A stretch of 64,000 nucleotides of DNA from a virus. The translations under genes were made by a program, and so were the position numbers. Below are positions 30,557 through 50,947 of this stretch, in pieces. The number at the start of each line of letters is the position of its first letter. The first letter of the stretch is position 1. The stretch covers positions 50,010 through 114,009 of IMG/VR virus record IMGVR_UViG_3300030117_007876. One strand, written 5' to 3'. Below the pieces are notes generated by a model. The model saw only the letters and a program-made list of their open reading frames with translations, did no database searches and was not told the origin of the DNA.

Positions 30557-30581
30557 TAATAAATATTCTTAATAAGACACA

Positions 30582-30610
30582 CAACCCACAGGGCAACCTG
30601 TGGGTTTTTT
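30582..30610 (+). terminator. Intrinsic terminator
   Basis: AACCCACAGG-GCAA-CCTGTGGGTT followed by T-tract. Confidence 0.85.
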
Positions 30611-30818
30611 GTTTGATTATAAATAATACGCGGCCAAATAACATACAATATCTATCTATTACATACTAAATAAACACTATTCGATTGTAAATAAAATAAA
30701 GCCAAATAACTAACAAATAAACACGTAATATAAATAACTAAATATAGAACGCTAAATATATGTATGCAAATAAGTAATAATATATATAAAAAAAATCTAA
30801 CTATATAATTTATAATTT

Positions 30819-30935
30819 GTAAGTCGTTGATTATTAAGAACTTACGCTGGGGCCCCTGTTTGCGTAACCTATTTATTATCAACAGGTTACATCTGTGGGG
30901 GCCCCAATGCAAGTCGTTGATTTTCAAGGGTTTAC
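30819..30935. repeat. 45-bp-period palindrome cluster 1 (3 units)
   Basis: 27-bp GTAAGTCGTTGATTATCAACAGGTTAC-like units separated by 18-bp GGGGCCCC linkers. Confidence 0.9.
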
Positions 30936-30964
30936 ATATGAGAGAGTTTTTTGTGTTTGTCAAT

Positions 30965-30989
30965 AAAAAAAGCCCCCTTTCGGGGGCTT
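30965..30989 (-). terminator. Intrinsic terminator of the DUF932 gene
   Basis: AAGCCCCC-TTTC-GGGGGCTT with A-tract on +. Confidence 0.8.
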
Positions 30990-31010
30990 GTGAGTGTATT
31001 TTATGCTTGA

Positions 31011-32075
31011 CTAATTAGCCAAAGCAATTTGATTTTGGGTTTCTAATTCAACCTTGCGTCCAATCTCCTTTAATCCATTGAATCGTTTGGAATTGAATTC
31101 CGGCTTACCCTGTAAATCGTTAGGGGTGTCAAACAATTGATTATAGAAATCTTGCTTTGCACGGTTGCCAGCTCCAAAATGACTTGACTCATTTTGTTTC
31201 ATTCGGAAGTTGTCTTTATCCTTGCCTCCAGATGATTCATGACTGTAAAAATCAGTAACAGCAGAAAAAGCGTCCAGAAGCGTTTCGCCTTTGTTGCCTT
31301 CTCCTGTGGAAAAGAGTTCCGTCAGTCGTTCGATTCTGTTTCTTGATTGGGTTGGGATCACTTTATCTTTATTGCTTTTCATGATCCAACCAGTGAAAGC
31401 TTCGGACACTTCATTACGTTTCACAGGGATTTCAGCAGCAACCTGCATCGCATGTTTAAATTGCTTGGCGACGCCGATGAAAGATTCAATGCCTTTCTCC
31501 ATGTTTTCAATGCCAGCTATCATATTTTTAGAGTGACGGACCTTGAATCGGAAAAGTCCTGACTTGTCCTGCATAGCAGCGTTAAAGCTATTCTGACAAA
31601 CAATGCAAAGAGAGGTATTGACCCCGTAGAGTGAAGAACTCATGTCGATACTGTCCAGAAGACAAAAACGGTTTTTGAATTCACGTTGTCCAACATAGAA
31701 TTGATCCATATCTGTGCCCAAAGCTACGGTGATGTAACGTCGAGCGCGATTTTTAAACGTTCCAACATTTTCAACCTTAGCATCAGTGCCACCAACTGCA
31801 TTCTGCACGATTTCCCAGAATCTCTCATTTGTGAGATGCTGATAACTTTCAGGAATTGGTTTGCCAGTGAATTCTTGAGTGTCAGAACAGGTCAAGCCAT
31901 ACCATTTTGTGCCGTTCATGGAAACATGGTTTTTATCCCAATCGTATAAAGCTTGACGTTTAAACTCATAAGGAAATGCGTCTTCAAACGTAATTTCCTC
32001 AACAGTGTCTTTGCTGACCCAACTGGCGTTGGTGGAGATGTAGTGATCTTTGTTTTTGCTTTTATAGTTAGGCAT
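31011..32075 (-). CDS. DUF932 / phage-plasmid TIGR03299-like protein
   Basis: SY..L.NE, S.D.S, IVCQN, V.HSK, GET..DAF.AVT....H. Confidence 0.75.
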   Translation of the reverse strand: MPNYKSKNKDHYISTNASWVSKDTVEEITFEDAFPYEFKRQALYDWDKNHVSMNGTKWYGLTCSDTQEFTGKPIPESYQHLTNERFWEIVQNAVGGTDAKVENVGTFKNRARRYITVALGTDMDQFYVGQREFKNRFCLLDSIDMSSSLYGVNTSLCIVCQNSFNAAMQDKSGLFRFKVRHSKNMIAGIENMEKGIESFIGVAKQFKHAMQVAAEIPVKRNEVSEAFTGWIMKSNKDKVIPTQSRNRIERLTELFSTGEGNKGETLLDAFSAVTDFYSHESSGGKDKDNFRMKQNESSHFGAGNRAKQDFYNQLFDTPNDLQGKPEFNSKRFNGLKEIGRKVELETQNQIALAN

Positions 32076-32220
32076 ATCTTTTTTTATTTGATGTTCAACT
32101 TGTGATTTAACTTACATAGAAAATATATCATGCTTTAAAACCTGCGCAAACTTTTTTTTCATTTATTTTATTTCAATTAAGTATTGACAAAGCGCGTTTT
32201 TTTTGCTAGAAAATTCTTGC

Positions 32221-32292
32221 GTAAGTCGTTCATTATCAACAGGTTGCGCTTGCGGGGGCCCCAACGTAAGTCCCTGATTTGCAAGGACTTAC
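32221..32292. repeat. 45-bp-period palindrome cluster 2 (2 units)
   Basis: Same unit and linker. Confidence 0.9.
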
Positions 32293-32303
32293 GGTGTCAA
32301 GCT

Positions 32304-33035
32304 TTAATTTAAAACAACAAAACCACTTTCGTCTTTTAAGGCTCTGCCTTTTGCTTTCAAAGCTACAATGCAGTTTTTAGGATCTTTAAAGCGCAAGTCA
32401 TTTTTATCACCGTCAACAACTTTATATTTGCGCCCTTTAAAGTTATAGTGTCCATCTGACAAGACTTTTTTATAGTTTTTAAAAACCATTGCAACATTGC
32501 CACCTTTACGTAAAACAAGATCACAAACAGCATCATTTCTTTCTGACTTAGAAAAAGTTAAATGATAATTTGCTGGCATCTTACCATCAAGAAAGTCAAT
32601 CATTCTCTTAGGGTTTTTTGTGTAATCATAAAATTGAGTTTCTTTTTCAGTTTGAAAGATGTTTTCATTCTCCCATGGAATATCACTTGTTCCATTCAAA
32701 CGGACAACAAATTGAGTTTTATTTTTTATAGCTTTCTTTTTAGCGTTAAAAATCTCACCTTTGAGTTGATTAATCCAAGACGCTTTATCAGCAAAAAAAG
32801 ATATAGTTTTTTTAATTCTAGGATTGCGAACATTATTCATTGATCCGCGTCCCGCAGTAAACAAACAAGAAGCGCGGCACCCTTTAGAGGCGTGTGGACA
32901 TGTGTTCGCCACTCCTGATTCATCGCTTGGTGCGAGATACACAATCCCAGTCATAAAACCTTGAGAAATACCCTTTACGGTTTTAGCGTTTGTGTCGATG
33001 CCCAAGATCTTTTGAGTTTTAGCAATTGCTTTCAT
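32304..33035 (-). CDS. Gene-88-like (GP88) phage protein
   Basis: CP.AS.GC..SCL..AGRG, RLNGTSDI, FYDYTK, YHLTFS, DGD..DLRF.D. Confidence 0.85.
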   Translation of the reverse strand: MKAIAKTQKILGIDTNAKTVKGISQGFMTGIVYLAPSDESGVANTCPHASKGCRASCLFTAGRGSMNNVRNPRIKKTISFFADKASWINQLKGEIFNAKKKAIKNKTQFVVRLNGTSDIPWENENIFQTEKETQFYDYTKNPKRMIDFLDGKMPANYHLTFSKSERNDAVCDLVLRKGGNVAMVFKNYKKVLSDGHYNFKGRKYKVVDGDKNDLRFKDPKNCIVALKAKGRALKDESGFVVLN

Positions 33036-33080
33036 GACTTCATATTATTAAAAAATCAAAACAGTGCAAGAATAAAAATA

Positions 33081-33109
33081 AAAAAAAGCCCCTCACGATG
33101 TGAGGGGTT
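33081..33109 (-). terminator. Intrinsic terminator
   Basis: AGCCCCTCAC..GTGAGGGGTT with A-tract on +. Confidence 0.75.
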
Positions 33110-33225
33110 GATTACAACTATTTTATGCTTCTTTCAAGCAATACCAGCAAAATGCCAGCAATCATAGCAAGTATCAGATACATTTGCTTTCCCTTTCATT
33201 CAGTAGCCACCCCATGTGGCTAAAG

Positions 33226-33954
33226 TCAGTTGTGTTTTAAGGTTAAATCATCGTTTAAATATTCTTGTTTTATTCCTTCTATGCTATCATAACCAATATC
33301 ATCTTCATTATCATAACCGTCAACATAAAAATATCCTTCTACATATTTATGCATTCCGGGTTCATGACCACGACCACCAGATTCTGTGCATTTCCAGACT
33401 GTGTAATCTTCAAGACCTTCAACTTCGACTTGTTCATGTTGTGCAAGATGCCACTCTTCTATGATTTTCTTTATTCCACCAGTTATAGTGTAGATTTCAC
33501 CATAACCTTGTTCCTCTTCCCATTCTACAGTTATAACGTGTTTGGGGAATTTAAGGCTAAGATGATGAATCCAGTTGTAAGGTTCTTCCCATGGAGTTTC
33601 AAAACCAACTTCATCAGAATTACAGTAACTTGTTTGAGCATTCCACTTGCACCCCCAATTCTGAACGCACCAATCATACCAATCACCTACACCATACAAT
33701 TCACGAAATCGCTCCTTGTCTTTTTCAGTCATTGGGATTTGGTGCTGGCCATTACCATATTCCCATTTATTTTCTACAATATCTTTTGCTTGTTCTTGCA
33801 GTGATACTGTTGAACCTGTCCAGTAATCTTTTAGATCAGGTGGGATAGGCATGATAAGCTCGAAGTCCACATCTTTCTCTCCACATTTATCACAAGTGAT
33901 AGCATTAATCACATCTTCATGTGCAGATAGTTTAATATTGACCCAATTTGGCAT
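33226..33954 (-). CDS. YubB/Api92-like (DUF1281) ferredoxin-fold protein
   Basis: MPNW, WYDWCVQNWGCKW, FETPWE.P. Confidence 0.8.
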   Translation of the reverse strand: MPNWVNIKLSAHEDVINAITCDKCGEKDVDFELIMPIPPDLKDYWTGSTVSLQEQAKDIVENKWEYGNGQHQIPMTEKDKERFRELYGVGDWYDWCVQNWGCKWNAQTSYCNSDEVGFETPWEEPYNWIHHLSLKFPKHVITVEWEEEQGYGEIYTITGGIKKIIEEWHLAQHEQVEVEGLEDYTVWKCTESGGRGHEPGMHKYVEGYFYVDGYDNEDDIGYDSIEGIKQEYLNDDLTLKHN

Positions 33955-33962
33955 AACATTTT

Positions 33963-34214
33963 TTATTTAAAAGGTTCATATTGACGAACGATAGAATCTT
34001 GATCGGTGTGGTGATTTTCGACCGTGTATTGTATTCCATGTTTTTGCATGGCACGATGGAAAATAGTCCAATCGCAATCCTCTTCTAGAAAAGCGTATCC
34101 TGCAGCTTTATATGAGAATTCACTAATCTTGTCAACGATATTTAACTTTTCAAGTAATCCCATAGGCACTTGTAGCCACCCATGAGCTGGATCTGTTTTA
34201 GCAATTAATTTCAT
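33963..34214 (-). CDS. Conserved phage/plasmid hypothetical protein
   Basis: DPAHGWLQV...IS.FSY...LEEDCD; start adjusted. Confidence 0.7.
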   Translation of the reverse strand: MKLIAKTDPAHGWLQVPMGLLEKLNIVDKISEFSYKAAGYAFLEEDCDWTIFHRAMQKHGIQYTVENHHTDQDSIVRQYEPFK

Positions 34215-34304
34215 GATATATTTAGTTAGTAAGCAAACAAGCAATAAAACATATTAAAACGCACATAAAAGCACATATCAACCATGTTTTTTCATTTGCA
34301 GCAT

Positions 34305-34634
34305 TCATTTGGATTTGGAGTTGTTATAATTGTAGTCTTTTAATTGTCTTCTGTCAACTTTTTTTCCTTTAGTGTTTACCTTTTGTCGGCAGAAGTATCG
34401 ATATCCCTCAAGCCATTCTTCATGCGAACCAATTTTCTTTTCTTCGCTAATAATGGGGTGACGGAATCCAGAATTACTTGTGGCATAATCATGGACTCTA
34501 TTTTTCTTCCAATACTTTGATGTTCGACTAATATGTCCTTTTTTAATTCTTGCAACTTCGGCAGCTACAAGAGTAGTCCAAGGAACTTTATCTTCATGCT
34601 GTTTACCTGTGGATCTGTAATCAACTTTTTTCAT
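34305..34634 (-). CDS. Hypothetical protein, KVNxxGKKVDR paralog family
   Basis: Shared motif with 18511 and 18872 ORFs. Confidence 0.7.
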   Translation of the reverse strand: MKKVDYRSTGKQHEDKVPWTTLVAAEVARIKKGHISRTSKYWKKNRVHDYATSNSGFRHPIISEEKKIGSHEEWLEGYRYFCRQKVNTKGKKVDRRQLKDYNYNNSKSK

Positions 34635-34638
34635 AATA

Positions 34639-34941
34639 TTAATTCTCACATGTTTCTATTAAATGAATCATTTGATGATTGTCAATAAAGTAAAGATCAT
34701 ATTTATCAACTAATTCCTTAAATGTTATATAAAAATTTTCATTACTTGTAGTTAACCTCCAGAGATTTTCCCCTTCAGATGGAACCTCGACAGTATAAAC
34801 TGTAGCAACAATATGTTTAGCAACAGCAAACAGCGTCCCTGCATTGTCAGGGAGGTTAGCTAAACATGAGTCTAACTCTTGAGCAGTAGAGAATATAATT
34901 TTCTGCCCGTGGCTACAAGAATCGTATATTAATTTTTTCAT
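34639..34941 (-). CDS. Hypothetical protein
   Basis: ORF. Confidence 0.6.
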   Translation of the reverse strand: MKKLIYDSCSHGQKIIFSTAQELDSCLANLPDNAGTLFAVAKHIVATVYTVEVPSEGENLWRLTTSNENFYITFKELVDKYDLYFIDNHQMIHLIETCEN

Positions 34942-35201
34942 ATTAATTTATCTATTTTAAGGTTTTCTATGAAATCTTCCTTATATATGTCTGCCATGTC
35001 TTTACTAGTTCTGCGATTTAATTTATCATTTAAATAATCAAACAAATCAATTAGCTCTTCGACATTGCAAACTTCACCATCTAACCATTCCATGTAGACA
35101 TCTTTTGGTTGCGCCATCAATGCTCGCCACGCAATTTCATCAACCAAATCTTGCTTGTTTAAATCAGCGTATGTAAAAGTTGTGATGTTTTCTTTTTTCA
35201 T
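34938..35201 (-). CDS. Hypothetical protein
   Basis: ORF; start adjusted. Confidence 0.6.
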   Translation of the reverse strand: MKKENITTFTYADLNKQDLVDEIAWRALMAQPKDVYMEWLDGEVCNVEELIDLFDYLNDKLNRRTSKDMADIYKEDFIENLKIDKLI

Positions 35202-35202
35202 A

Positions 35203-35397
35203 TTATTGTGGGCAGAGTTCACGGAAGATACTTTTCATTTCTTCTGAGGATATTTCGTCTGTCTGTTTTTTAGTTTTGGTGGCGACTCTGTTCTTTACTT
35301 GCAACCGTTGAAGTGGTAGTTCGGTTGATGTGATTTCTGACACGATACCTTTTTTAATGCATCGCTTAACAAGAGCTTTATATTTATCTTTTGTCAT
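35203..35397 (-). CDS. Hypothetical protein
   Basis: ORF. Confidence 0.55.
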   Translation of the reverse strand: MTKDKYKALVKRCIKKGIVSEITSTELPLQRLQVKNRVATKTKKQTDEISSEEMKSIFRELCPQ

Positions 35398-35402
35398 AAT
35401 TT

Positions 35403-35786
35403 TTATTCAGCTAACCATTTAGCCTTGATTTTATTTTTATCATACATTTTGACAAACTTATTGATTTCATCAGCGAGATCGTCATGCCATACATCTTTAT
35501 ATGCTCTTGCTAAAAGGTCAAGAGCTTTTTCAAATCTTAGTTCGGTAGGTTTTTTAAATTTATTACGGAACATCACTACTTCATCAATAGCACGTTGATC
35601 CCAATCTCCATTAAAGTATCTAGCTTGATAGCGTATCAACTTTGCGACTTGTTCGATTGTGCATTCGATTGGTTGGAATCCTTTTATTGCGTATCCATCA
35701 AAAGCAGATATTGACAAATGATCTAGATCTGCATCTGATTTAGCAATGCGAATAGCCTCGTTCATATCGTGAATGTTCATAAGCAA
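35403..35786 (-). CDS. Hypothetical protein
   Basis: ORF with TTGACT promoter. Confidence 0.65.
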   Translation of the reverse strand: MLMNIHDMNEAIRIAKSDADLDHLSISAFDGYAIKGFQPIECTIEQVAKLIRYQARYFNGDWDQRAIDEVVMFRNKFKKPTELRFEKALDLLARAYKDVWHDDLADEINKFVKMYDKNKIKAKWLAE

Positions 35787-35828
35787 TATTTAATAAGAAA
35801 ATAAGGTAAGAGTCAATAGAATTTTAAT

Positions 35829-36239
35829 TTAACTTTTTGCGTAATGACGCGCTGATCGACCGTCTTCAGTCTCTAACTCTTTTCTGATGTAAGTAAGTTT
35901 TTTTTCGAGATCTTGGCTGTTTTTAGCAATGCGAATCGCGAGTCTTAGTGCGGTGGAGTGTGAATAGCGTCTATATTTACCCTCTTTTTCGCAAGCGTCT
36001 TCGGAGATCATTTGTCTTATTTCTTCAAGCATGTCGAACTCTTTACTAGTTATTGAAAAAGCTTTACTCCAAGTTTCACAACATTCATTCTTTGAGTATA
36101 AAATTTTTTTAGATTTATTTTTTTGAGCAGATCTTTTAGTTTTTCTTTTTTTAAGCGTTGGAGTTTTAATTTTTGTAGAGTTAGCTTTTTTGGTGAGCTG
36201 AATCCATTCGCCTAGTGTTTTATTTTTTGTAGCGTCCAT
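35829..36239 (-). CDS. Putative ribbon-helix-helix DNA-binding protein
   Basis: AFSIT.KEF..LEE....S.S..LR.AIR. Confidence 0.5.
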   Translation of the reverse strand: MDATKNKTLGEWIQLTKKANSTKIKTPTLKKRKTKRSAQKNKSKKILYSKNECCETWSKAFSITSKEFDMLEEIRQMISEDACEKEGKYRRYSHSTALRLAIRIAKNSQDLEKKLTYIRKELETEDGRSARHYAKS

Positions 36240-36335
36240 ACAATTAAAATAATTCAATAAATAATGAATGTCAAATAATAAATAATCAAATAGTAATAAA
36301 AATTAAGTATAAAAAATACACTATAATTTATATTC

Positions 36336-36452
36336 GTAAGTGCTTGATAATCAACAGGTTGCGCTGGGGCCCCCTTCTGCGTAAGCTGTTTATATTCAAT
36401 AGGTTATAAAAGGAGGGGCCCCGGCACAAGTCTTTGATTGCGTTGAGGTTAT
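36336..36452. repeat. 45-bp-period palindrome cluster 3 (3 units)
   Basis: Same unit and linker. Confidence 0.9.
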
Positions 36453-36462
36453 GAATTATAAT

Positions 36463-37131
36463 TTATATTGTTGTGGGGTTAGGGCTATTTCCCCCAAGCC
36501 TTTTTTTAATCGGGGTTTGGTTACCTAGGTTAGGCCCACCTGAAAAATGTTGGTGCTCAATGCAAGATGAGCCTCTGCCGACAATATTTCTGGTGCTCAT
36601 GTCGTTTCTTGAATAGTCTTTTTTCTTTTGTGTATGTGCTAGCGCTACAGCTTCTGATTTGCTACGAAGTGGAATACCCAGAATTTTTAAATTTCTCGAT
36701 ATTGTCATTCTGCCAACTCCCATTATTTCTCCAATTTTAGAGCAGGACATTTTTTGATTAACGTACATGTCTTCTAATTTTACGATATCTAGCTCTATTG
36801 GCTTAGCTTTTGCACTAGTCCGCGTTATTACTCCGAGTTGTTTTAGTTTACGAAGCACGGTCATCCTGCAGACGTTTAGTTTTTTACTTATCTTTATTGT
36901 ACTAATTTTTTGATTAACATACATGTCAACCATTTTTTCGATATCTACTTGTTTTTCTATAACTTCTCTGCTTGCTTGCGTGAATGATTTTATAGTAATA
37001 TTTTTTTCTTTAAGCAGGTTACTAATTGTATCAGGGCGAATCTTAAAGATTTTCCCTATTTTTCTAAGCGATATGCCTTGATTAACATACATGTCAACAA
37101 CGAGTTCGGTGTCTATATCTAACCTTTCCAT
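36463..37131 (-). CDS. Triple HTH-repeat DNA-binding protein
   Basis: Three D(I/T)...VDMYVNQ..S..KI... repeats. Confidence 0.75.
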   Translation of the reverse strand: MERLDIDTELVVDMYVNQGISLRKIGKIFKIRPDTISNLLKEKNITIKSFTQASREVIEKQVDIEKMVDMYVNQKISTIKISKKLNVCRMTVLRKLKQLGVITRTSAKAKPIELDIVKLEDMYVNQKMSCSKIGEIMGVGRMTISRNLKILGIPLRSKSEAVALAHTQKKKDYSRNDMSTRNIVGRGSSCIEHQHFSGGPNLGNQTPIKKRLGGNSPNPTTI

Positions 37132-37194
37132 GGTTTAAAGATACTGTATTTTTTAATCTGACGCAAGAAAAAAAACAGTTATTTTTTTTACCGC

Positions 37195-37266
37195 GCAACC
37201 TATTGCGATTCAATAAGTTGCAAAAGGAGGGGCCCCAACGTAAGTCGTTGACTACGAGGGGTTTAC
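37195..37266. repeat. 45-bp-period palindrome cluster 4 (2 units)
   Basis: Same unit and linker. Confidence 0.88.
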
Positions 37267-37290
37267 AGATTATATAATTATATAATTAAT

Positions 37291-37365
37291 TGGTGGGCTG
37301 GGTGAGACTCGAACTCACAACCAACGGCTTAAAAGGCCGCTGCTCTACCATTGAGCTACCAGCCC
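37291..37365 (-). tRNA. tRNA-Lys(TTT)
   Basis: Reverse-complement cloverleaf GGGCTGG...CCCACCA. Confidence 0.95.
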
Positions 37366-37373
37366 CAGAGGGA

Positions 37374-37574
37374 TTAGTCAACTCTTTTTATTTTACCAAT
37401 GATCCCACCTTTGGTAAAGGAGCGGATGCCATACTGCTGATGCTCTCCGCTATATTTGTAGGCGGTGAAGAAATGGGGCTTGTCAACGATAGGACCAGAG
37501 GTCACATAAGTATTGACAACTCCATCTTGGCGTTTGTAAACGAACGTGTATTTTTCGGTTGGGAATGATTGCAT
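37374..37574 (-). CDS. Hypothetical protein
   Basis: ORF. Confidence 0.6.
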   Translation of the reverse strand: MQSFPTEKYTFVYKRQDGVVNTYVTSGPIVDKPHFFTAYKYSGEHQQYGIRSFTKGGIIGKIKRVD

Positions 37575-37599
37575 ATTATTTTTCGCTTTCTATTTATTA

Positions 37600-37833
37600 T
37601 TATTTATTTAGTTTGATATTAGGGCAGTCGTTATCATGAAGGAATTCACGGACTTCATTGACTGATTCAACTATTTTAGCCAGTTGTTTAGAAAAATATT
37701 CATTGCTGAGATCTGGATATTTGAGCAGACATTCGGCATGAGCTTCTAACCTGCCACTCATTGAGGCGAGATAACCATCCATGGCAAAAAATTCTAGATC
37801 TTCGTAGTGGTAGTTTGCAACGTCTTTATTCAT
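37600..37833 (-). CDS. Hypothetical protein
   Basis: Leaderless, TTGACA-17-TAAATT. Confidence 0.65.
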   Translation of the reverse strand: MNKDVANYHYEDLEFFAMDGYLASMSGRLEAHAECLLKYPDLSNEYFSKQLAKIVESVNEVREFLHDNDCPNIKLNK

Positions 37834-37871
37834 ACAAGTAATTTAGTGCAATTTTTATTCTTTGTCAATTT

Positions 37872-38063
37872 TTATTTTGTCCAATCTTCAGCGCAAGTAA
37901 TCCAAGCTTCAGGATGAATGATTGATTTTTCCATTTGCTTGATTGTTTCAGCTTTATCACTGCTGATTTGTTTTGCATACATATCAAGAGCTTGCATAAC
38001 GAAGACTTGGTTCAGTGGAGATTGCTCCATGTATTCAGTGACTTTTTCAATGTTTGTTTTCAT
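37872..38063 (-). CDS. Hypothetical protein
   Basis: Leaderless, TTGAAT..TAAATT. Confidence 0.65.
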   Translation of the reverse strand: MKTNIEKVTEYMEQSPLNQVFVMQALDMYAKQISSDKAETIKQMEKSIIHPEAWITCAEDWTK

Positions 38064-38093
38064 ATTTAAAATTTACCATATTAAATATTAAAT

Positions 38094-38309
38094 TCAAGAA
38101 AAATCTACTTCAATTTCACAATTTAAATTGTCAACCCTGTCTGCATTGCGATAGACTCTCCCTCCAAATTTGGAGATGTATTCGAGAGCAGCTTCAAGCG
38201 CTCCATGTTCAGGGTAATCGTCAATGTAAAAAGTTGCATTCTTTTTATTTGGAACGAGAACTGCGTGGTAGGCTTCCATTGAGATTGACTTTGTTGTTGT
38301 ATTTTTCAT
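38094..38309 (-). CDS. Hypothetical protein
   Basis: Start adjusted to MKNTTT after extended -10 TGTTATGCT. Confidence 0.6.
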   Translation of the reverse strand: MKNTTTKSISMEAYHAVLVPNKKNATFYIDDYPEHGALEAALEYISKFGGRVYRNADRVDNLNCEIEVDFS

Positions 38310-38398
38310 GCTATAAGCATAACAAATAGGGTAGGACAAATACAGTCCAACCCCCAAAAAAGTGAAAAAAGTTTTTAAAAGAAAAGTGTTGACATCGC

Positions 38399-38470
38399 GT
38401 AAGTCATTGATAATCAACAGGTTACATTGGGGCCCCCCATCGCGTAACTCGTTGATACTGAGGGGTTTGT
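38399..38470. repeat. 45-bp-period palindrome cluster 5 (2 units)
   Basis: Same unit and linker. Confidence 0.9.
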
Positions 38471-38494
38471 GAATTATAATTTATATTATACTAT

Positions 38495-38528
38495 AAAAAA
38501 AAGGGAGGGAGCCGAAGCTCCCTCCTTG
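38495..38528 (-). terminator. Intrinsic terminator of the hydrolase gene
   Basis: GGAGGGAGC-CGAA-GCTCCCTCC with A-tract on +. Confidence 0.8.
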
Positions 38529-38586: not shown

Positions 38587-39030
38587 TTATAATTTATAAA
38601 AAATGTGGCGTCCAATCTTAGCGACAGGCTTTTCGCCCTTCGCCCAATACGGTGCTTTGATATAGTCTGCATAGTAATGGTTGGCGTTGCCGATCTTGGC
38701 GCGATCAATGCGATGCATGTTCTTGGCGAGATAGATTGCCATCTTTGCCTGTGGCACATTCAACAGATGATCAAGGTCTGAGATCTTCTTGCCATTCCAA
38801 CAGGAGAACTGCCATTTAGCTAGGCAGACTTTTTCCCATGTCTGCTTGCGGTCGATTGCACGTTGAGCGATGACAGCTGCAACGGCTCCCATTCCTTTGT
38901 CACCTTCACCCCGTGCCTCTGCAAGGATCGTAATGGCGACCACTTTTTGTTCTTTAGTAAGTTCACTTGATGCGACCAGTGCCGTGATTGATTGTGATAC
39001 AAGTAAGACATAAAGCAATATCGTTTTCAT
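38587..39030 (-). CDS. Cell-wall hydrolase, SleB/Hydrolase_2 family
   Basis: AEARGEG..GM.AVA.VI, QFSCW, HYY.....PYW, IGRHIFY; signal peptide. Confidence 0.9.
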   Translation of the reverse strand: MKTILLYVLLVSQSITALVASSELTKEQKVVAITILAEARGEGDKGMGAVAAVIAQRAIDRKQTWEKVCLAKWQFSCWNGKKISDLDHLLNVPQAKMAIYLAKNMHRIDRAKIGNANHYYADYIKAPYWAKGEKPVAKIGRHIFYKL

Positions 39031-39049
39031 ATGTATAAGATAACAGAAT

Positions 39050-39259
39050 TTAGGCTAGTGTCAAATGTTTTTTTATTTCACTATGAGCGAATTCAATAGC
39101 GCATCTGACGGCATCTTGACGATTGGCAACACCTAAAATATCTTTCAATTCATGCATTTGCGCCACCAGTTCAGGAGAAAGAGCGACGTTTACTTGAAGT
39201 CTTTTACCATCTATTTTGTTCCATCGTAAGTTTTTGATAGTGATCTTATCTGGTTTCAT
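39050..39259 (-). CDS. Small RHH-like protein
   Basis: LQVNVALS.EL...NRQDAVR.AI. Confidence 0.55.
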   Translation of the reverse strand: MKPDKITIKNLRWNKIDGKRLQVNVALSPELVAQMHELKDILGVANRQDAVRCAIEFAHSEIKKHLTLA

Positions 39260-41908: not shown

Positions 41909-44900
41909 ATGAATTATTTTGTAACACATTGTGATAAAAAATATATAAAATATGCTGAAAGATTGTTTGAATCACTAAAAAAGGATTCTGAAAATAAAAT
42001 TTTATTTTTTTCAGTTGATTTTGATTATAAAAATCGTTTCAAAAATGTTATTAATATAAAATATGATGCTTTAAGAAATTTTAAAGAAAAAAGAAACGAT
42101 TTGTACAAACCTTTTAGAGGAGATTCAAAATCTTTTCATGTCTTTATAAAACCTTTGATTGTAGAGGGGCTGTTAGATGGTAAATATGCGCAAATATCAT
42201 CAGATGATAACTTTTGCTACTTAGACGCGGATTGTTTTAGTCGAAAAGAGTGTGATTCTATATTTAAAAACGCTCAGAAAATAAAAAATTATCCGTTACT
42301 TAGCATAGCTTGTCAGCAGTATATGCTTTGCAATGGCAGAGGTAATCCTTTTGCTAACGGTAAAGAAGATCCTAACTTATGTTTAGAGGCTCCGTTACTA
42401 AAAGAGTTAGGAATTGATGTAAGTTTAAGAATTCCTGTATATTTACAAACAGGAGTTTTTATGTTTAATAAAAAATGCATAGATTTTGTTAAAGAATGGA
42501 GTGATTTATGTTTTTCTAACTTAGTACTGAATAATAGAGAATATCTTGCTCCCTTTCATGAAGAAACAGTTATAAACTGTCTTTTATGGCGAGATAAAGT
42601 AAAAGATAATTTAGGGCAGTCATTAATAAATGTTATTGAAGGTGGTAAAAAAGAATTGAAAGAAATGATGCATCATCTTGAAAATCCTAGTCAAGAGTTG
42701 CAGCGAATTACAAATCATTGCACTATTCCTGCAAAAAACAAAATAAATGATCTTTATTTTTTTCACAGAAGAGTAAATGATCAAGTATACAAATTTTTAA
42801 CACAAAAAATGAGAAAATTATATTTAAAAGTAAATTCTCCATCTTTAGGAGACACATTAGCTGTTACTCCTACATTAAGAAAATTATCTAAAACTTATGA
42901 TGGGCTTATCAGCGTAATTACCCATCACAAAAATATTTTTCAAGATAACCCTTATGTTGATGAAATTTTGTCTTTTGATGAGTTTCAATCTTTAAAAACA
43001 GAAGATTGTGAAGTATTTGAAACTTTTTTAGGTATTGGGCATAAAAATCATCTTGGAGTAGAAAAAAAACACAATACAATTGATATAAGACAATTTCATT
43101 CTATTGATTTAGGCTTTTGTCTATCCAGTGATGAAATGGAATATGATTATACGCCCGACAATTACGTTCAGATCAAAGATCTGCCTTCTTCCTATGTCGT
43201 ACTACATGTAGGATCTACATGGCCCTCTAGAACGTATTCTAAGGACAATTGGCAGCAATTAATAAATCTATTGAACTATGACAATATAAGTGTGGTCTTA
43301 GTGGGTAAAAATGATCATGAAACAGGTTTTTACGATATAGATAAGAAAACAATTAACTTAAACGTAAATTTAGGCTTAGATTTAACAAATCAGTTAACTT
43401 TATCTCAGTGTTGGCATGTTATTGATAAAGCTACGTGTTTAATAACTATGGACTCTGGTTTATTGCATTTAGCTGGAACAACAGATACTTACATTGTTCA
43501 GTTAGGATCTTCTTTAAATAATGAGTTAAGGGCTCCTTTTAGAAAAGGTTCTCAAAATTATAAATACAAATATATAAGTGGGTCTTGTGATATATTTTGC
43601 GCTTCAGATATAAAATATGGAGTAAAAGAATGGGGTACTATTCAAGGTGTGCCTCCTTTGATAAATTGTTTAGAAAACAAGCCTACTTTTGAATGCCACC
43701 CTAATCCGCAAAATGTTTTTGATTTTGTAGAATCCGAAATAGTTGAAAAACACAATGTATTAAATTATGTAGATTTTTCTTACGAAAATAATCGTTTAGC
43801 TTTAAATTATAGTTTGTCAGATTCTAAATACGCTGGTAAATACAATATAGTCATAGAAGAGGAAGGTTCTGGCATCGTAATATATCAAGAATTAGTAAAT
43901 ATTTCTCATGCGGGAGTTAATTTTTGGACAGATTTTACTTTTGCAAAATCCAAGATGAACGAAAATTTCAAAGTAAGAGTTTTGAAAAATAATTCTTGCG
44001 TTTTCGAAAAGAATTTTTCTTACCCTCATTTCAATCCCTCAAATCCTTTAATTGAATTAGGTGATAAATTACAAAATTTTGATTTATCTGGTGTTTCTTT
44101 AGGAGTTCTTTCTGAAGTGTTTATAGACAATAATTATGATGAAGGTTTGGTAAAAGTTTCTGAAGGAGATGTAGTCGTGGATATAGGTTTTAACGTAGGC
44201 TTATTTTCTGTAAAATCTTTTCTTGAAGGTGCTAAAAAAATATACGCGGTAGAACCTAACGAAGAAAACATATCTAAATTTAAATCAATAAATAAAAATA
44301 AAGTAATCGATAATTTGCACATATCTAATATTGCAATATCTGATCATGACGGAACAGATAGTTTTCTTATAGACGAAGATTATGATAATTCTGGTCGTTC
44401 CATGTTGGAGAAAACGCTGCATTCAGGTAGAACAAGTTTTAATTCTCATTCTTACAAAACCGTCAAAACTCAAAAATTTCAAACTTTTCTTGAAGAAAAT
44501 AATATAGATAAAATTGATTTATTAAAAATAGACTGTGAAGGTGGAGAATTATTTATTTTGCACGAAGATAATAGAAAAATATTTGAAGACAAAGTTGATA
44601 AAGTTGTTGGAGAAATTCATTTCTCTTTAGATACACAAAAAGGAAGTTACATGAAAAATTTCCTTGAAGAAACTGGTTTTGAGTTTTCTATAGATGCGGG
44701 ACCAGATCCTGCGGGACTGATAACATTTAGCGCTTTAAAAAAAAAGAATAAAAAAATAGTATTTTTAGCTCCCCACTTATCAACAGGAGGTTCACCGGCT
44801 TATTTATTATGGTTAATCCAAGAAAAGATAAAACAAGGTTATGAAGCTTTTGTTATAGAATATTGTTACTATGGAAATTATATAGTTCATAGAAATAAAA

Positions 44901-46828
44901 TTATAGACTTAATAGGTAAAAATAATTTCTTTAATTTTGCAGCGCTTAATGACTCTGATGAAGTTTTTATAGATAGAACTGATTTTTTGATTCAAAAGGT
45001 TCAAGATATTAATCCTTCCGAAATCCATTTAAACGAAATAGGTGAGAATTTTTCACTTAAACAGTTAACGGAAAAATTAAAAAGCTTTCTTTATTCTCCT
45101 GAAAGAAAATTCAAGATTTACGAAACCTGTCATACTTCTGAATTCGATTTTAAAGACAAGGTTTTAATGCCAGATGAATTTTATTTTTGCACACCTTACC
45201 ATTTGAAATCATCTGATCACCTAAACGTGCCTAAAAAAGTTGTAGAGATGCAAATTAATAAGCAAAAAAAGCCTGACAGAGATAAAACTTTAATTTCTTT
45301 AGGTTTAGATCCTAATAAATACCATGTTTTACAGGTAGGTTTATTTCACGAAAATAAAAATCAAAAGTTCACCTTTGATTTAGCCAAACAATTTATAAAC
45401 GCTCCCATTCAATTTCATTTTGTAGGAAACATTTGTTTTGTTGATGACTGCGGTGTAGATAAAGAACAGCAAAATTGTAAAATATGGGGAGAAAAAGATA
45501 ATGTAGATATTTTTATGTCGTGCATGGATTTGTTTATTATGCCTTCAATAAAAGAGTTAAATCCTATTTCCATAAAAGAAGCTCTTTCTTGGAGTATGCC
45601 TTGCTTTGTTTCAAAGATAGAAACATTGCAGTCGCAATATGAACACACGGAAAATGTTGAATTTATAGATGGTTTAAATTTATTTAATTATATAAAGGGC
45701 AAAATAAAACCTTTAATGAGTGAAAGTAAATTTTTAGATTTGCATAGTAATACTTTTTCAGTTAACAGAGAAGATGATATTGTTAAAGTTGAAATTATAG
45801 GTCATGAAGTATGCGACTATGAAATAAAATTTGTTGATTTAGAAACTTATAAAATACTTTATCAAACAAAAATAACAAATGGCATGTGGAGCTCTTGCGC
45901 AAGTAATAGTAAACTTAAAGTTTTAATTTATAATTGTATAACTTGCAAAACAGAAACTTTTTGGCCCGATGATTTAAATATAATTAATGAATCTGGAAGT
46001 TTAGGTGACGCTTTGGCTTGGGTTCCTGTAGTAAATGAATTCACGAAATTAAAAACTCAAAAAGTTAACTTTTTCACTCCTTATGCAAATATTTTTGATA
46101 AAAATGAATATCCGAATATAAAGTTTAAAAATTATAATCAAATTGCTGGAGAAAAAGAATTAGAAAATACTAAAAGAATAGGTTGTTTTTATAAAGAGTC
46201 TCTTTCTGTGCCGTTACAAGATTTGCCTTGTGAAATTTTAAGCATCCCTAAATTAAGAAATAATATAAGACCTAAAATTAATAAATCATTTATAACTTTA
46301 AGGCCTTTTGAGAAAAAATATGTTTGTATCGCTTCGCATTCTACAGCTCAATTAAAATATTGGAATAATGAAGTTGGTTGGGAACAGGTAATAAAATATT
46401 TAAAAGAAATTGGTTATGAAGTAATTTGTTTAGACAGAGATCGTGATTTTGGAAATGACCAAAAAATGAATTCAATTCCTGAAGATTGTATCCATTACCC
46501 CGGAGAATCTTTGGCCGACATAATTAATTGTTTGCATTATTGCGAATTTTTTATAGGTTTAAGTTCTGGATTATCTTGGCTAGCTTGGTCTAGTTTTAAA
46601 CCCGTGGTTATGATTTGCGGTTTTTTGGAAAAAGAATATCATTTTGATGAGGCTTACTATGTGCAAAATAAAAACGTTTGCAATTGTTGTTGGAACAAAG
46701 GAAAACATTTTGATTCTTCAAATTGGATGTGGTGCCCAGAAAATAAAAATTTTGAGTGTTCAAAAGAAATTTATTTTGAAATGGTAAAGAATAGTATAGA
46801 TAATTTAATATCTGATCATAACTTATAA
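41909..46828 (+). CDS. Multidomain sugar-modifying enzyme: GT-A, GT9, FkbM methyltransferase, GT4 and autotransporter-type heptosyltransferase
   Basis: YLDAD; SLGD..DSGLLHLA; VVDIGFNVG..KIDCEGGE; APHLSTGG..ELNPISIKEA; SLGD..GLSSGLSW..CNCCW..WCP..FECSK. Confidence 0.85.
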   Translation: MNYFVTHCDKKYIKYAERLFESLKKDSENKILFFSVDFDYKNRFKNVINIKYDALRNFKEKRNDLYKPFRGDSKSFHVFIKPLIVEGLLDGKYAQISSDDNFCYLDADCFSRKECDSIFKNAQKIKNYPLLSIACQQYMLCNGRGNPFANGKEDPNLCLEAPLLKELGIDVSLRIPVYLQTGVFMFNKKCIDFVKEWSDLCFSNLVLNNREYLAPFHEETVINCLLWRDKVKDNLGQSLINVIEGGKKELKEMMHHLENPSQELQRITNHCTIPAKNKINDLYFFHRRVNDQVYKFLTQKMRKLYLKVNSPSLGDTLAVTPTLRKLSKTYDGLISVITHHKNIFQDNPYVDEILSFDEFQSLKTEDCEVFETFLGIGHKNHLGVEKKHNTIDIRQFHSIDLGFCLSSDEMEYDYTPDNYVQIKDLPSSYVVLHVGSTWPSRTYSKDNWQQLINLLNYDNISVVLVGKNDHETGFYDIDKKTINLNVNLGLDLTNQLTLSQCWHVIDKATCLITMDSGLLHLAGTTDTYIVQLGSSLNNELRAPFRKGSQNYKYKYISGSCDIFCASDIKYGVKEWGTIQGVPPLINCLENKPTFECHPNPQNVFDFVESEIVEKHNVLNYVDFSYENNRLALNYSLSDSKYAGKYNIVIEEEGSGIVIYQELVNISHAGVNFWTDFTFAKSKMNENFKVRVLKNNSCVFEKNFSYPHFNPSNPLIELGDKLQNFDLSGVSLGVLSEVFIDNNYDEGLVKVSEGDVVVDIGFNVGLFSVKSFLEGAKKIYAVEPNEENISKFKSINKNKVIDNLHISNIAISDHDGTDSFLIDEDYDNSGRSMLEKTLHSGRTSFNSHSYKTVKTQKFQTFLEENNIDKIDLLKIDCEGGELFILHEDNRKIFEDKVDKVVGEIHFSLDTQKGSYMKNFLEETGFEFSIDAGPDPAGLITFSALKKKNKKIVFLAPHLSTGGSPAYLLWLIQEKIKQGYEAFVIEYCYYGNYIVHRNKIIDLIGKNNFFNFAALNDSDEVFIDRTDFLIQKVQDINPSEIHLNEIGENFSLKQLTEKLKSFLYSPERKFKIYETCHTSEFDFKDKVLMPDEFYFCTPYHLKSSDHLNVPKKVVEMQINKQKKPDRDKTLISLGLDPNKYHVLQVGLFHENKNQKFTFDLAKQFINAPIQFHFVGNICFVDDCGVDKEQQNCKIWGEKDNVDIFMSCMDLFIMPSIKELNPISIKEALSWSMPCFVSKIETLQSQYEHTENVEFIDGLNLFNYIKGKIKPLMSESKFLDLHSNTFSVNREDDIVKVEIIGHEVCDYEIKFVDLETYKILYQTKITNGMWSSCASNSKLKVLIYNCITCKTETFWPDDLNIINESGSLGDALAWVPVVNEFTKLKTQKVNFFTPYANIFDKNEYPNIKFKNYNQIAGEKELENTKRIGCFYKESLSVPLQDLPCEILSIPKLRNNIRPKINKSFITLRPFEKKYVCIASHSTAQLKYWNNEVGWEQVIKYLKEIGYEVICLDRDRDFGNDQKMNSIPEDCIHYPGESLADIINCLHYCEFFIGLSSGLSWLAWSSFKPVVMICGFLEKEYHFDEAYYVQNKNVCNCCWNKGKHFDSSNWMWCPENKNFECSKEIYFEMVKNSIDNLISDHNL

Positions 46829-49878: not shown

Positions 49879-50244
49879 ATGAGTAGCATATACTGTTCGC
49901 AATGCGGTAGCAAGCATCAAGCTGGAGCAAAATTTTGTTCTTCATGTGGCAACGCTTTGTCTGCTTTGTCGAGACAAGTAAACCAAGTGAATCAAATTGC
50001 TGATGTTGAAGTTCAAACTGAAGAAAGTTTTAGGAGGCCAAGAGGTTTAGCTTACGAAATAGATAGGGGTGGAAATAACGTTTATAAAGCAGAAGATATT
50101 TTCAATTCTAACCCTGTTGATGAAGGAAGTAAAATAAAAAGACCAATAGGCCAACAAACAAAAATGTCTGAACAAGAATTACTCTCAGAATCCTTAAAAG
50201 AATGCGCCCCTGTAAAAAATATAAAAGAAATTAATGAAACGTAA
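49879..50244 (+). CDS. Zinc-ribbon protein
   Basis: YCSQCG...AKFCSSCG. Confidence 0.75.
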   Translation: MSSIYCSQCGSKHQAGAKFCSSCGNALSALSRQVNQVNQIADVEVQTEESFRRPRGLAYEIDRGGNNVYKAEDIFNSNPVDEGSKIKRPIGQQTKMSEQELLSESLKECAPVKNIKEINET

Positions 50245-50947
50245 GGGGAAAAAATTTGAGGACATGTATGAAATAATTGACGACGTAATAAAAAAACGTA
50301 AATCTAAATGGCGTTTAAAAGCTATTACTTGGTTTGACTTTGAAGATATAGAGCAAATTATCAAATTGCATATATATAAAAAATGGCATTTGTGGGATCA
50401 GTCTCGCCCTATAGAACCTTGGGTTAATAGAATAGCTACAAATCAAATAAAAAATATTATAAGGAATAATTACACCTCTTTTGCTAAACCCTGTTTATCT
50501 TGCCCCTTTAATACAAGCAAAGGAATAGAAATAACTTTCGAAAATTCTTGTGGTTTTACAGCTAGTAAAATTCAATGCAATGAATGTCCTCTTTATGCTA
50601 AATGGGAAAAGCTGAAAAAACCAGCTTTTGATGTAAAAATGACTGTTAGCTTAGAAAATCATAAAAATTATTACATGTCATTTCAGTCTACTGCGGAGTG
50701 TGATTATAGAAAAGCGGAAAGCAGGCTACATGGATTAATGAAATCATGTTTAAGTGATAAACAGTTTTTTGTTTATAAAATGTTTTTTATTGATTGCTTG
50801 CATGACGATGAAATAGCTAAAATATTAAATTTTAAAACTAACGAAAAAGGTCGAAAGGCTGGATACAAACAAATCAAAAACTTAAAAAAAATGTTGTACC
50901 AAAAAGCTCAAAAATTGATGAAGGAAAATGATTTGTTTTCTGAGTAA
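50234..50947 (+). CDS. Phage sigma factor (ECF-like) with Cys-rich insertion
   Basis: Region 2 (EDIEQ...W..RIATN...N..R) and region 4 (LSDKQ..VY......EIAKIL). Confidence 0.7.
   Translation: MKRKGKKFEDMYEIIDDVIKKRKSKWRLKAITWFDFEDIEQIIKLHIYKKWHLWDQSRPIEPWVNRIATNQIKNIIRNNYTSFAKPCLSCPFNTSKGIEITFENSCGFTASKIQCNECPLYAKWEKLKKPAFDVKMTVSLENHKNYYMSFQSTAECDYRKAESRLHGLMKSCLSDKQFFVYKMFFIDCLHDDEIAKILNFKTNEKGRKAGYKQIKNLKKMLYQKAQKLMKENDLFSE

Follow-up and report, generated by a model that had tools for sequence, protein, structure and literature searches.

A stretch of 64,000 nt of viral DNA (positions 50,010 to 114,009 of IMG/VR record IMGVR_UViG_3300030117_007876; hereafter the window) carries twelve copies of a 27-bp near-palindromic unit, set in five intergenic clusters within a block of small minus-strand genes. 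The contig belongs to an uncultured tailed phage (114 kb, 32% G+C) that encodes terminase, portal, PolIII-alpha, DnaB, a RecA-like protein, PhoH and two sigma-like proteins. By its sequence the unit is a symmetrised IHF-type site, as it can be read as two inverted copies of the IHF consensus WATCAANNNNTTR sharing a central A or T (YAA-N4-TTGAT-W-ATCAA-N4-TTR). We propose, at what we judge to be about even chances, that each unit is where a DNA-bending HU/IHF-type protein, most likely one from the host, binds, and that the paired module folds the DNA between early transcription units.

The repeat is real and confined to the five clusters (Table 1). All twelve unit starts given in a first-pass annotation of the sequence were verified, together with the exact 45-bp period within each cluster and the single orientation of all units; the statement that clusters occur only in intergenic gaps of the minus-strand block holds for all five. 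The consensus offered there describes the unit overall and is idealised, since individual units are off by 2–12 bases and just two of them match it with three mismatches or fewer. When a weight matrix built from the twelve units was run over the 114,009 bp of the contig, no extra copy appeared. The GC-rich core GGGGCCCC, noted earlier in the 18-bp linkers, is present in all seven inter-unit linkers; it is counted seven times in the window and seven times in the contig, always in these linkers, against a mean of 0.06 in window shuffles. The core lies at offset +3 or +7 in the linker, and the three-unit clusters have one linker of each type. An AT-rich flanking box (TATAATTTATA) could be seen at clusters 1 (left), 3 (both sides), 4 (right) and 5 (right) and is missing from cluster 2. 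In the last plus-strand unit of clusters 3, 4 and 5 only 3–6 of the 13 mirrored positions are palindromic, which leaves one good half.

To describe the unit more fully, 127 distinct units from ten contigs were aligned in gene orientation. Columns A3, A4, T10, G11, C17, A18, A19, T24 and T25 are near-invariant, the centre is A or T, column 26 takes only purines (A/G, 99–100%) and column 2 only pyrimidines (T/C). Outward from the centre each half-site reads W-ATCAA-N4-TTR, the IHF consensus, a match that the first-pass annotation does not mention; the canonical IHF site spans 34 bp, with WATCAA running from near its centre and TTR 4 bp further 3′ (PMC1874591). The WATCAA bases are kept at frequencies of 86–91% (W14), 60–73% (A15), 76–90% (T16), 92–98% (C17), 100% (A18) and 91% (A19), and TTR, which also follows 4 bp 3′ of WATCAA, at 98–100% (T24) and 100% (T25). 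Prolines of IHF intercalate at two AA steps that are 9 bp apart, an A-tract within the site's 5′ half being optional (PMC1874591), and TTR lies 6 bp from the nearer kink (PMC5829579). The corresponding AA/TT steps of the unit, A18-A19 and T9-T10, are likewise 9 bp apart, and it is there that we would expect prolines to intercalate. The motif CAA-N4-TTR is found in 109 of the 127 gene-proximal and 97 of the 127 distal halves, with the exact 13-mer in 78 units, and in the window every one of the twelve units has at least one CAA-N4-TTR half. The double site YAA-N4-TTG-N5-CAA-N4-TTR is counted four times in the contig, each time within a cluster (shuffle mean 0.14).

The same alignment bears on whether the units act as RNA or single-stranded DNA (ssDNA) hairpins, such as terminators, processing sites, hairpin promoters or small RNAs. 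Their near-palindromic form would suit this, as would the position of the clusters directly past stops or terminators and, in one relative (L074), a promoter-like element (TTGACA-N18-GTTATA) that aims into six of seven pairs, with a hairpin after them. Yet mirrored cells pair in 76.1% of cases vs. 75.4 ± 0.5% in partner shuffles, and the covariation score of 0.146 (0.135 shuffled) was equalled or passed in 28 of 500 shuffles. Between 34 and 48% of cells are unpaired in the variable columns 5–8/20–23; conservation is clearly higher in the gene-proximal half, and the drift of the distal half goes uncompensated. Mismatches of the G-U type are not biased to either strand, Rfam returned tRNAs and no other family, and clusters 1 and 5 already have a terminator in front of them. 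The palindromy thus comes from a pair of half-sites, both fitting a single consensus, and not from selection to keep bases paired, which argues for two protein half-sites and against a hairpin. We regard hairpin functions, including the ssDNA role raised in the first-pass annotation, as very unlikely.

A viral-contig scan with part of the unit revealed at least nine related uncultured phage contigs with the same 27-bp unit in pairs. The carriers make up one phage clade with about 30 genes in common, including terminase, portal, capsid, PolIII-alpha, PhoH and two sigma-like genes. Conservation in relatives had been proposed as a check of both spacing and palindromy: the unit in fixed-spacing pairs is retained, and the period is not always 45 bp. 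Centre-to-centre spacing is constant within each contig and takes values of 40/41, 42, 45, 48 or 50 bp according to lineage. The linker of the relatives is always GC-rich, often palindromic and conserved within each genome, and in the nearest relative (G003) both the 45-bp period and the GGGGCCCC core recur. On each contig the pairs lie in one 8–14 kb block of small genes adjoining a PhoH, sigma and terminase module (examples in Table 1), and the clusters, one per gene or two, number five in the phage studied here and up to eleven in relatives. The two sigma-factor-like proteins, encoded at window positions 50234-50947 and contig positions 7797-8462 (L253), are conserved across the clade, which suggests a sigma cascade for middle and late genes. 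Neither the region nor a single cassette has a DNA match among cultured phages, and the capsid was not matched there either; the terminase shares only about 26% identity with those of Bacillus and Clostridium phages. Nothing relevant was returned by a literature search with the unit-core sequence.

We then consider which protein may bind the unit. These phages have no HU/IHF-family gene, no sigma-54 gene and no conserved gene for an enhancer-binding activator; the only hit to PF00158 was one AAA+ open reading frame (ORF) of the window's own contig (G000), and the PF00158 model also hits archaeal control genomes. No DNA-binding gene of the block is conserved across the clade. The local DNA-binding ORFs at 36463, 35829 and 39050, which had been named as candidate binders, lack conservation among the element-bearing relatives and were dropped. 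A GP88-family protein was rejected too: it is the only block gene in common across the clade, but it is widespread in unrelated phages. So was a clade-wide protein of 130 aa that weakly hit a PHROG family labelled 'transcriptional regulator', the alignment of which looks like a degenerate zinc-ribbon-type protein and not like a typical dimeric repressor. Since neither HU/IHF nor a recombinase (see below), sigma-54, a conserved activator or a block-wide DNA-binding gene was found in the phages, a host binder is the economical explanation, and we infer that the binder is probably a host protein. The symmetric site would suit a homodimeric HU/IHF-like protein. For the capsid gene, a match of 81% identity was found on a short contig of a Gammaproteobacteria-labelled assembly, which encodes IHF alpha and IHF beta (above NCBIfam cut-offs) as well as HU, and a more distant relative lies in a Flavobacteriaceae bin with two undifferentiated HU/IHF-like genes.

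The clusters might instead form an operator array for another dimeric or tetrameric regulator of phage or host origin, for example as an early-block switch, the likeness to IHF sites being coincidental. We consider this possible but rather doubtful. It would account for the half-site positions that are conserved beyond the IHF consensus (CGAC and the outer G and C), for the conservation of the GC-rich linker within each genome, and for the unit centre doubling as a −35 element in this phage and in G003, as that of an operator would; the two sigma-like proteins and the 130-aa protein are, moreover, common to the clade. The fates of the GP88-family and 130-aa candidates and the lack of a clade-wide DNA-binding gene in the block speak against it, and a chance match is unlikely at nine IHF positions that include R/Y and W degeneracies and the 9-bp kink spacing. 

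Of the earlier proposal of phased sites for a dimeric protein, the part best supported is that of repeated binding sites for such a protein, by half-site conservation, lack of covariation and clade-wide occurrence of the element; phasing itself is not supported, as 45 bp corresponds to 4.3 helical turns, relatives have spacings of 40–50 bp and the predicted distances to downstream promoters are out of register.

Table 1. Clusters of the 27-bp unit, adjacent genes and predicted signals in the window, and location of unit pairs in two related contigs.
Feature	Position	Strand	Details
Cluster 1	30819..30935		three units (30819, 30864, 30909); cores 30849-30856 and 30898-30905
Cluster 2	32221..32292		two units (32221, 32266); core 32255-32262
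Cluster 3	36336..36452		three units (36336, 36381, 36426); cores 36366-36373 and 36415-36422
Cluster 4	37195..37266		two units (37195, 37240); core 37229-37236
Cluster 5	38399..38470		two units (38399, 38444); core 38429-38436
Multi-HTH gene	36463..37131	−	222-aa protein with three helix-turn-helix (HTH) domains; clusters 3 and 4 on either side
tRNA-Lys(TTT)	37291-37365	−	25 nt upstream of cluster 4 on the gene strand
Intrinsic terminator	30970..30989	−	for gene 31011-32075, directly before cluster 1
Intrinsic terminator	38504..38525	−	ends the upstream transcription unit directly before cluster 5
Promoter-like TTGACA-17-TATTTT	36246..36274	−	−10 ends 6 nt before ATG of gene 35829-36239
Promoter-like TTGCGT-17-TATCTT	37138..37166	−	−10 ends 6 nt before ATG of the multi-HTH gene
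Promoter-like TTGATT-17-TATAAT	36434..36462	+	last unit of cluster 3 as −35; antisense; 10/12 matches
Promoter-like TTGATA-17-TATAAT	38452..38480	+	11/12 matches in sigma-70-like scan
G001 (related contig, 104.7 kb)	91.8-103.4 kb		pairs of the unit
G002 (related contig, 202.9 kb)	4.9-18.1 kb		pairs of the unit

The cluster-bearing block covers about 31.0–40.5 kb of the window. On the gene strand every cluster comes after a unit's stop codon or intrinsic terminator and, except for cluster 1, is followed by the promoter of the next unit. Cluster 5 follows the terminator of the gene for a cell-wall hydrolase (38587-39030) and has a 71-aa gene (38094-38309) downstream; cluster 4 is located between tRNA-Lys and the multi-HTH gene. 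Cluster 3 starts 11 nt past the stop of the multi-HTH gene and is upstream of gene 35829-36239; cluster 2 separates the stop of the GP88-family gene (32304-33035) from a DUF932 gene (31011-32075). Cluster 1 marks the 3′ end of the minus-strand block, past the terminator of the DUF932 gene, with no gene beyond it. The AT-rich non-coding stretch of about 260 bp (30560-30818) between cluster 1 and a bidirectional terminator (30583-30606) holds a 28-bp tandem repeat (30704-30760) and minus-strand promoter-like sites, and could encode a small RNA. Adjoining the block, a gene at 41909-46828 encodes a 1639-aa protein that combines glycosyltransferase family 9, FkbM-type methyltransferase and group 1 glycosyltransferase domains. 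A long ORF (61204-63999) running off the window end has Ser/Gly-rich repeats with periods of 9, 18, 27, 54 and 108 bp and probably encodes a fibre or surface protein.

Several of the clusters coincide with promoter-like sequences. At cluster 5 the centre of the last unit serves as the −35 box and the flanking AT box as the −10 box of a site antisense to the genes, the second-best sigma-70-like match in the region. The centre of the outer unit, TTGAT or TTGAC, lies exactly 17 bp from the flanking TATAAT in both this phage and G003; in the latter (L250) the same geometry, read from the sequence, is found in all four cassettes, again antisense. A plus-strand site of this form could also be read by eye at 37248-37276. 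These near-consensus TTGAyw-17-TATAAT sites aim into the 3′ end of the upstream gene. In another relative (L137), a TATTTT or TATCTT box stands 16 bp from the unit centre in gene direction. The promoter-like site at 37138-37166, from the predicted start of which the nearest unit centre is about 77 bp upstream, was read by eye from the sequence and is absent from the list of a simple promoter scan. Minus-strand sigma-70-like sites at 36246-36274, 37840-37868 and 39037-39064, like those in L074 and G001, have a −10 box that ends only 5–8 nt before the ATG; leaderless mRNAs are therefore predicted for many early genes. Shine-Dalgarno-like motifs before long ORFs showed no excess over random positions in G000, G001 and G002, and a Bacteroidota host is thus possible.

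In G001, G002 and G003, sigma-54-like −24/−12 elements are concentrated in the pair-bearing block, often 12–18 nt from a pair and in either orientation. They were located at 7.4-17.5 kb of G002, in G001 (L237/L238) and at 15549 in G003 (L250); the form TGGCAY-N6-TGC is found in G002 (L239) 11 times in the 13 kb of the pair block vs. once in the remaining 190 kb. Sigma-54 promoters are a classical setting for IHF sites, and the elements beside the pairs count in favour of IHF-type binding. A sigma-54 enhancer function was nevertheless rejected, as neither a phage sigma-54 nor a conserved activator was found and the window has no GTGCCAAC.

The first-pass annotation had suggested that gene content may change at the clusters, and a comparison with G003 bears this out: collinear homology between the two phages is interrupted at clusters 3, 4 and 5. 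At the syntenic position G003 has neither the multi-HTH gene nor gene 35829-36239, and judged from this comparison the multi-HTH gene behaves as a swapped cassette. At cluster 4 identity spans the first unit and GTTGGGGCCCC and ends exactly there, so that one of the three breakpoints falls precisely at GGGGCCCC. In T4-type phages, modular gene shuffling has been shown for the repeated PeSL (promoter-early stem-loop) cassettes (Arbiol et al. 2010, PMC2839356), and the homology breaks seen here would fit such shuffling between repeated cassettes.

It could be argued further that the clusters are att-like sites of cassette exchange, in which bending sites flank GGGGCCCC as the crossover core for an unrecognised recombinase. 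Besides the breaks in or at the cassettes and the missing cluster-flanked genes, the three-unit clusters resemble the two types of linker fused together. However, no tyrosine (PF00589) or serine (PF00239) recombinase was found in G000–G004, contigs that are incomplete except for G002 (91% complete), and the 18-bp linker is too short for inverted core-type recombinase sites round an overlap region. With a sample of three breakpoints, homologous recombination between repeats of 70–120 bp suffices, as for PeSLs (PMC2839356). We therefore treat a dedicated site-specific system, and with it the dedicated recombination sites proposed at first, as a minority reading and such att-like exchange as unlikely. 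A phage-integron-like form of it, in which a non-canonical recombinase shuffles the early genes of large lytic phages, within a phage as well as from one to another, at the GC core, seems slightly less probable still.

Roles as replication-origin iterons, partition centromere, DNA-entry or packaging signal are in our view barely credible, and those of iteron and packaging signal, listed among the first suggestions, found no support. Tandem palindromes on a fixed period do call to mind iteron arrays and plasmid F with its 43-bp sopC repeats, and early entry of the block into the cell is possible. The clusters are, however, dispersed along the block, not gathered at a single locus; among the ORFs examined, none next to the clusters is a Rep or ParB-type gene, and cumulative GC skew has no sharp turn at the clusters.

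Turning back to the proposed bending-protein sites, the closest parallel is the canonical IHF site such as lambda H′, with which the unit has in common WATCAA-N4-TTR, the AA steps 9 bp apart and an AT-rich centre. A spacing of 40–50 bp leaves room for 34-bp footprints, and phage early promoters lie downstream of the sites, which in relatives are also found beside −24/−12 elements. IHF acts upstream of the lambda pL and Mu Pe early promoters and between enhancers and sigma-54 promoters. In contrast to such sites, the unit is symmetrised, with the consensus on both sides and no A-tract, has extra conserved bases and always comes in sets of two or three round a GC-rich core, 5–11 times per genome. 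Among repeated elements, BIME-1/RIB (RIP) elements of E. coli, as far as their summary in a later paper goes (Boccard and Prentki 1993, cited in PMC3333891), are also extragenic, combine an IHF site with GC-rich palindromes and lie at 3′ ends of transcription units; architectural and topological-insulator roles have been proposed for REP/BIME elements in that paper (PMC3333891). The order as summarised there (REP, IHF site, REP) is reversed here to IHF-type site, GC core (8 bp), IHF-type site, and the element, unlike BIME-1, belongs to a phage and not a chromosome and involves no REP-like GTAG hairpin or RAYT transposase.

PeSLs (PMC2839356) are likewise short repeated regulatory cassettes between small non-essential early genes, at which gene content differs between close relatives. 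A PeSL consists of a promoter and a terminator hairpin, whereas the conserved part here is the dyad pair with its GC core; promoter and terminator both lie outside the repeat and vary by cassette and lineage. Genome-wide operator repeats are known from the conserved inverted repeats of phiC31, the stoperators of mycobacteriophage L5 and the KorB operators of RK2. There too one short site recurs in many intergenic regions, and one protein controls many promoters. Those are, however, single sites for a repressor encoded by the element itself, as opposed to fixed-spacing pairs with no conserved phage repressor found.

The right half of the unit with its centre (19 bp) was matched at no fewer than 120 places in bacterial assemblies vs. 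about 17 expected, the latter being our estimate at equal base frequencies. The matches are mostly from Bacteroidota and the Verrucomicrobiota-Lentisphaerota group, many of them stem from multi-copy elements, and their distribution is not used here as support. A general chromosomal motif of Bacteroidota was rejected, since of 50 further genomes sampled only one contained the full double palindrome; the high counts seen in a Segatella and a Saprospiraceae genome are largely due to multi-copy elements. Gene clustering round the 120 matches gave no recurrent family. In Segatella maculosa DSM 19339 (L115, L184, L208, L211, L221, L278-L297) about 40 copies of a repeated element were seen, composed of GTCCCTACAT, some 25 nt, TTGATAATCAA-N4-TTAY and then several AATCTCAGCCATTTT-like repeats; from its layout it looks like a mobile-element end or a miniature inverted-repeat transposable element with a bending-protein site. 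At L150, L160, L182, L204 and L224 and at L146, L157 and L205, mostly from Verrucomicrobiota-type assemblies, the half-motif starts 0–4 nt past the 3′ end of a tRNA gene, with GTGCAGTAAA repeats following in one group of them. An att-border role was considered for these and set aside, because the neighbours are ordinary chromosomal genes and no integrase was found within about 3 kb.

How the bending-protein sites might work can be outlined as follows. With footprints of 34 bp at 45-bp spacing, about 11 bp would stay free between two bound proteins and be filled by a stiff GGGGCCCC core. Lying past the terminator or stop of one early unit and ahead of the following unit's promoter, the module would on binding fold the DNA sharply, and the folded DNA may shape or insulate neighbouring promoters. 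Where the TTGAT of a unit centre forms the −35 box beside TATAAT, the bound protein would occlude that promoter. As a by-product, the repeated cassettes may serve as recombination hot spots for swaps of early genes between phages.

Several points weigh against binding by an HU/IHF-type protein in such an architecture. Spacing ranges from 40 to 50 bp between lineages, and no single three-dimensional architecture is conserved. Helical phasing to promoters was considered and rejected for this window: the predicted distances from unit to transcription start (about −77, −103, −110 and −119) are off register. Several promoters of the block that are otherwise alike stand without any pair, and the conserved GGGGCCCC could be the site of a second protein. 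The unit lacks an A-tract in the 5′ half and has the mirrored consensus in its place; heterodimeric IHF needs no palindrome, and there is information beyond the E. coli IHF consensus, N4 being mostly CGAC and G1 and C27 being favoured. As to the host, the gammaproteobacterial capsid match is a mere lead, given the relative in the Flavobacteriaceae bin and the absence of Shine-Dalgarno use. Because spacing varies over a helical turn, the distances are off register and some promoters have no pair, we favour a general architectural, occluding or insulating role, like those discussed for IHF-binding BIME-1 elements and REPs of E. coli (PMC3333891), over that of a promoter-specific activator.

If the units are high-affinity sites for a host bending protein, the early host-takeover genes of a widespread clade of large, uncultured phages would be split up by a standard architectural module. 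This would explain why gene content turns over at fixed points, and would give a handle for recognising early regions and cassette boundaries in metagenomic phage genomes. The symmetric unit would also offer work on DNA bending a natural site of the IHF type, and probably a very strong one. For the phages themselves, it would make a testable case in which a phage borrows a nucleoid protein of its host at many sites at once.

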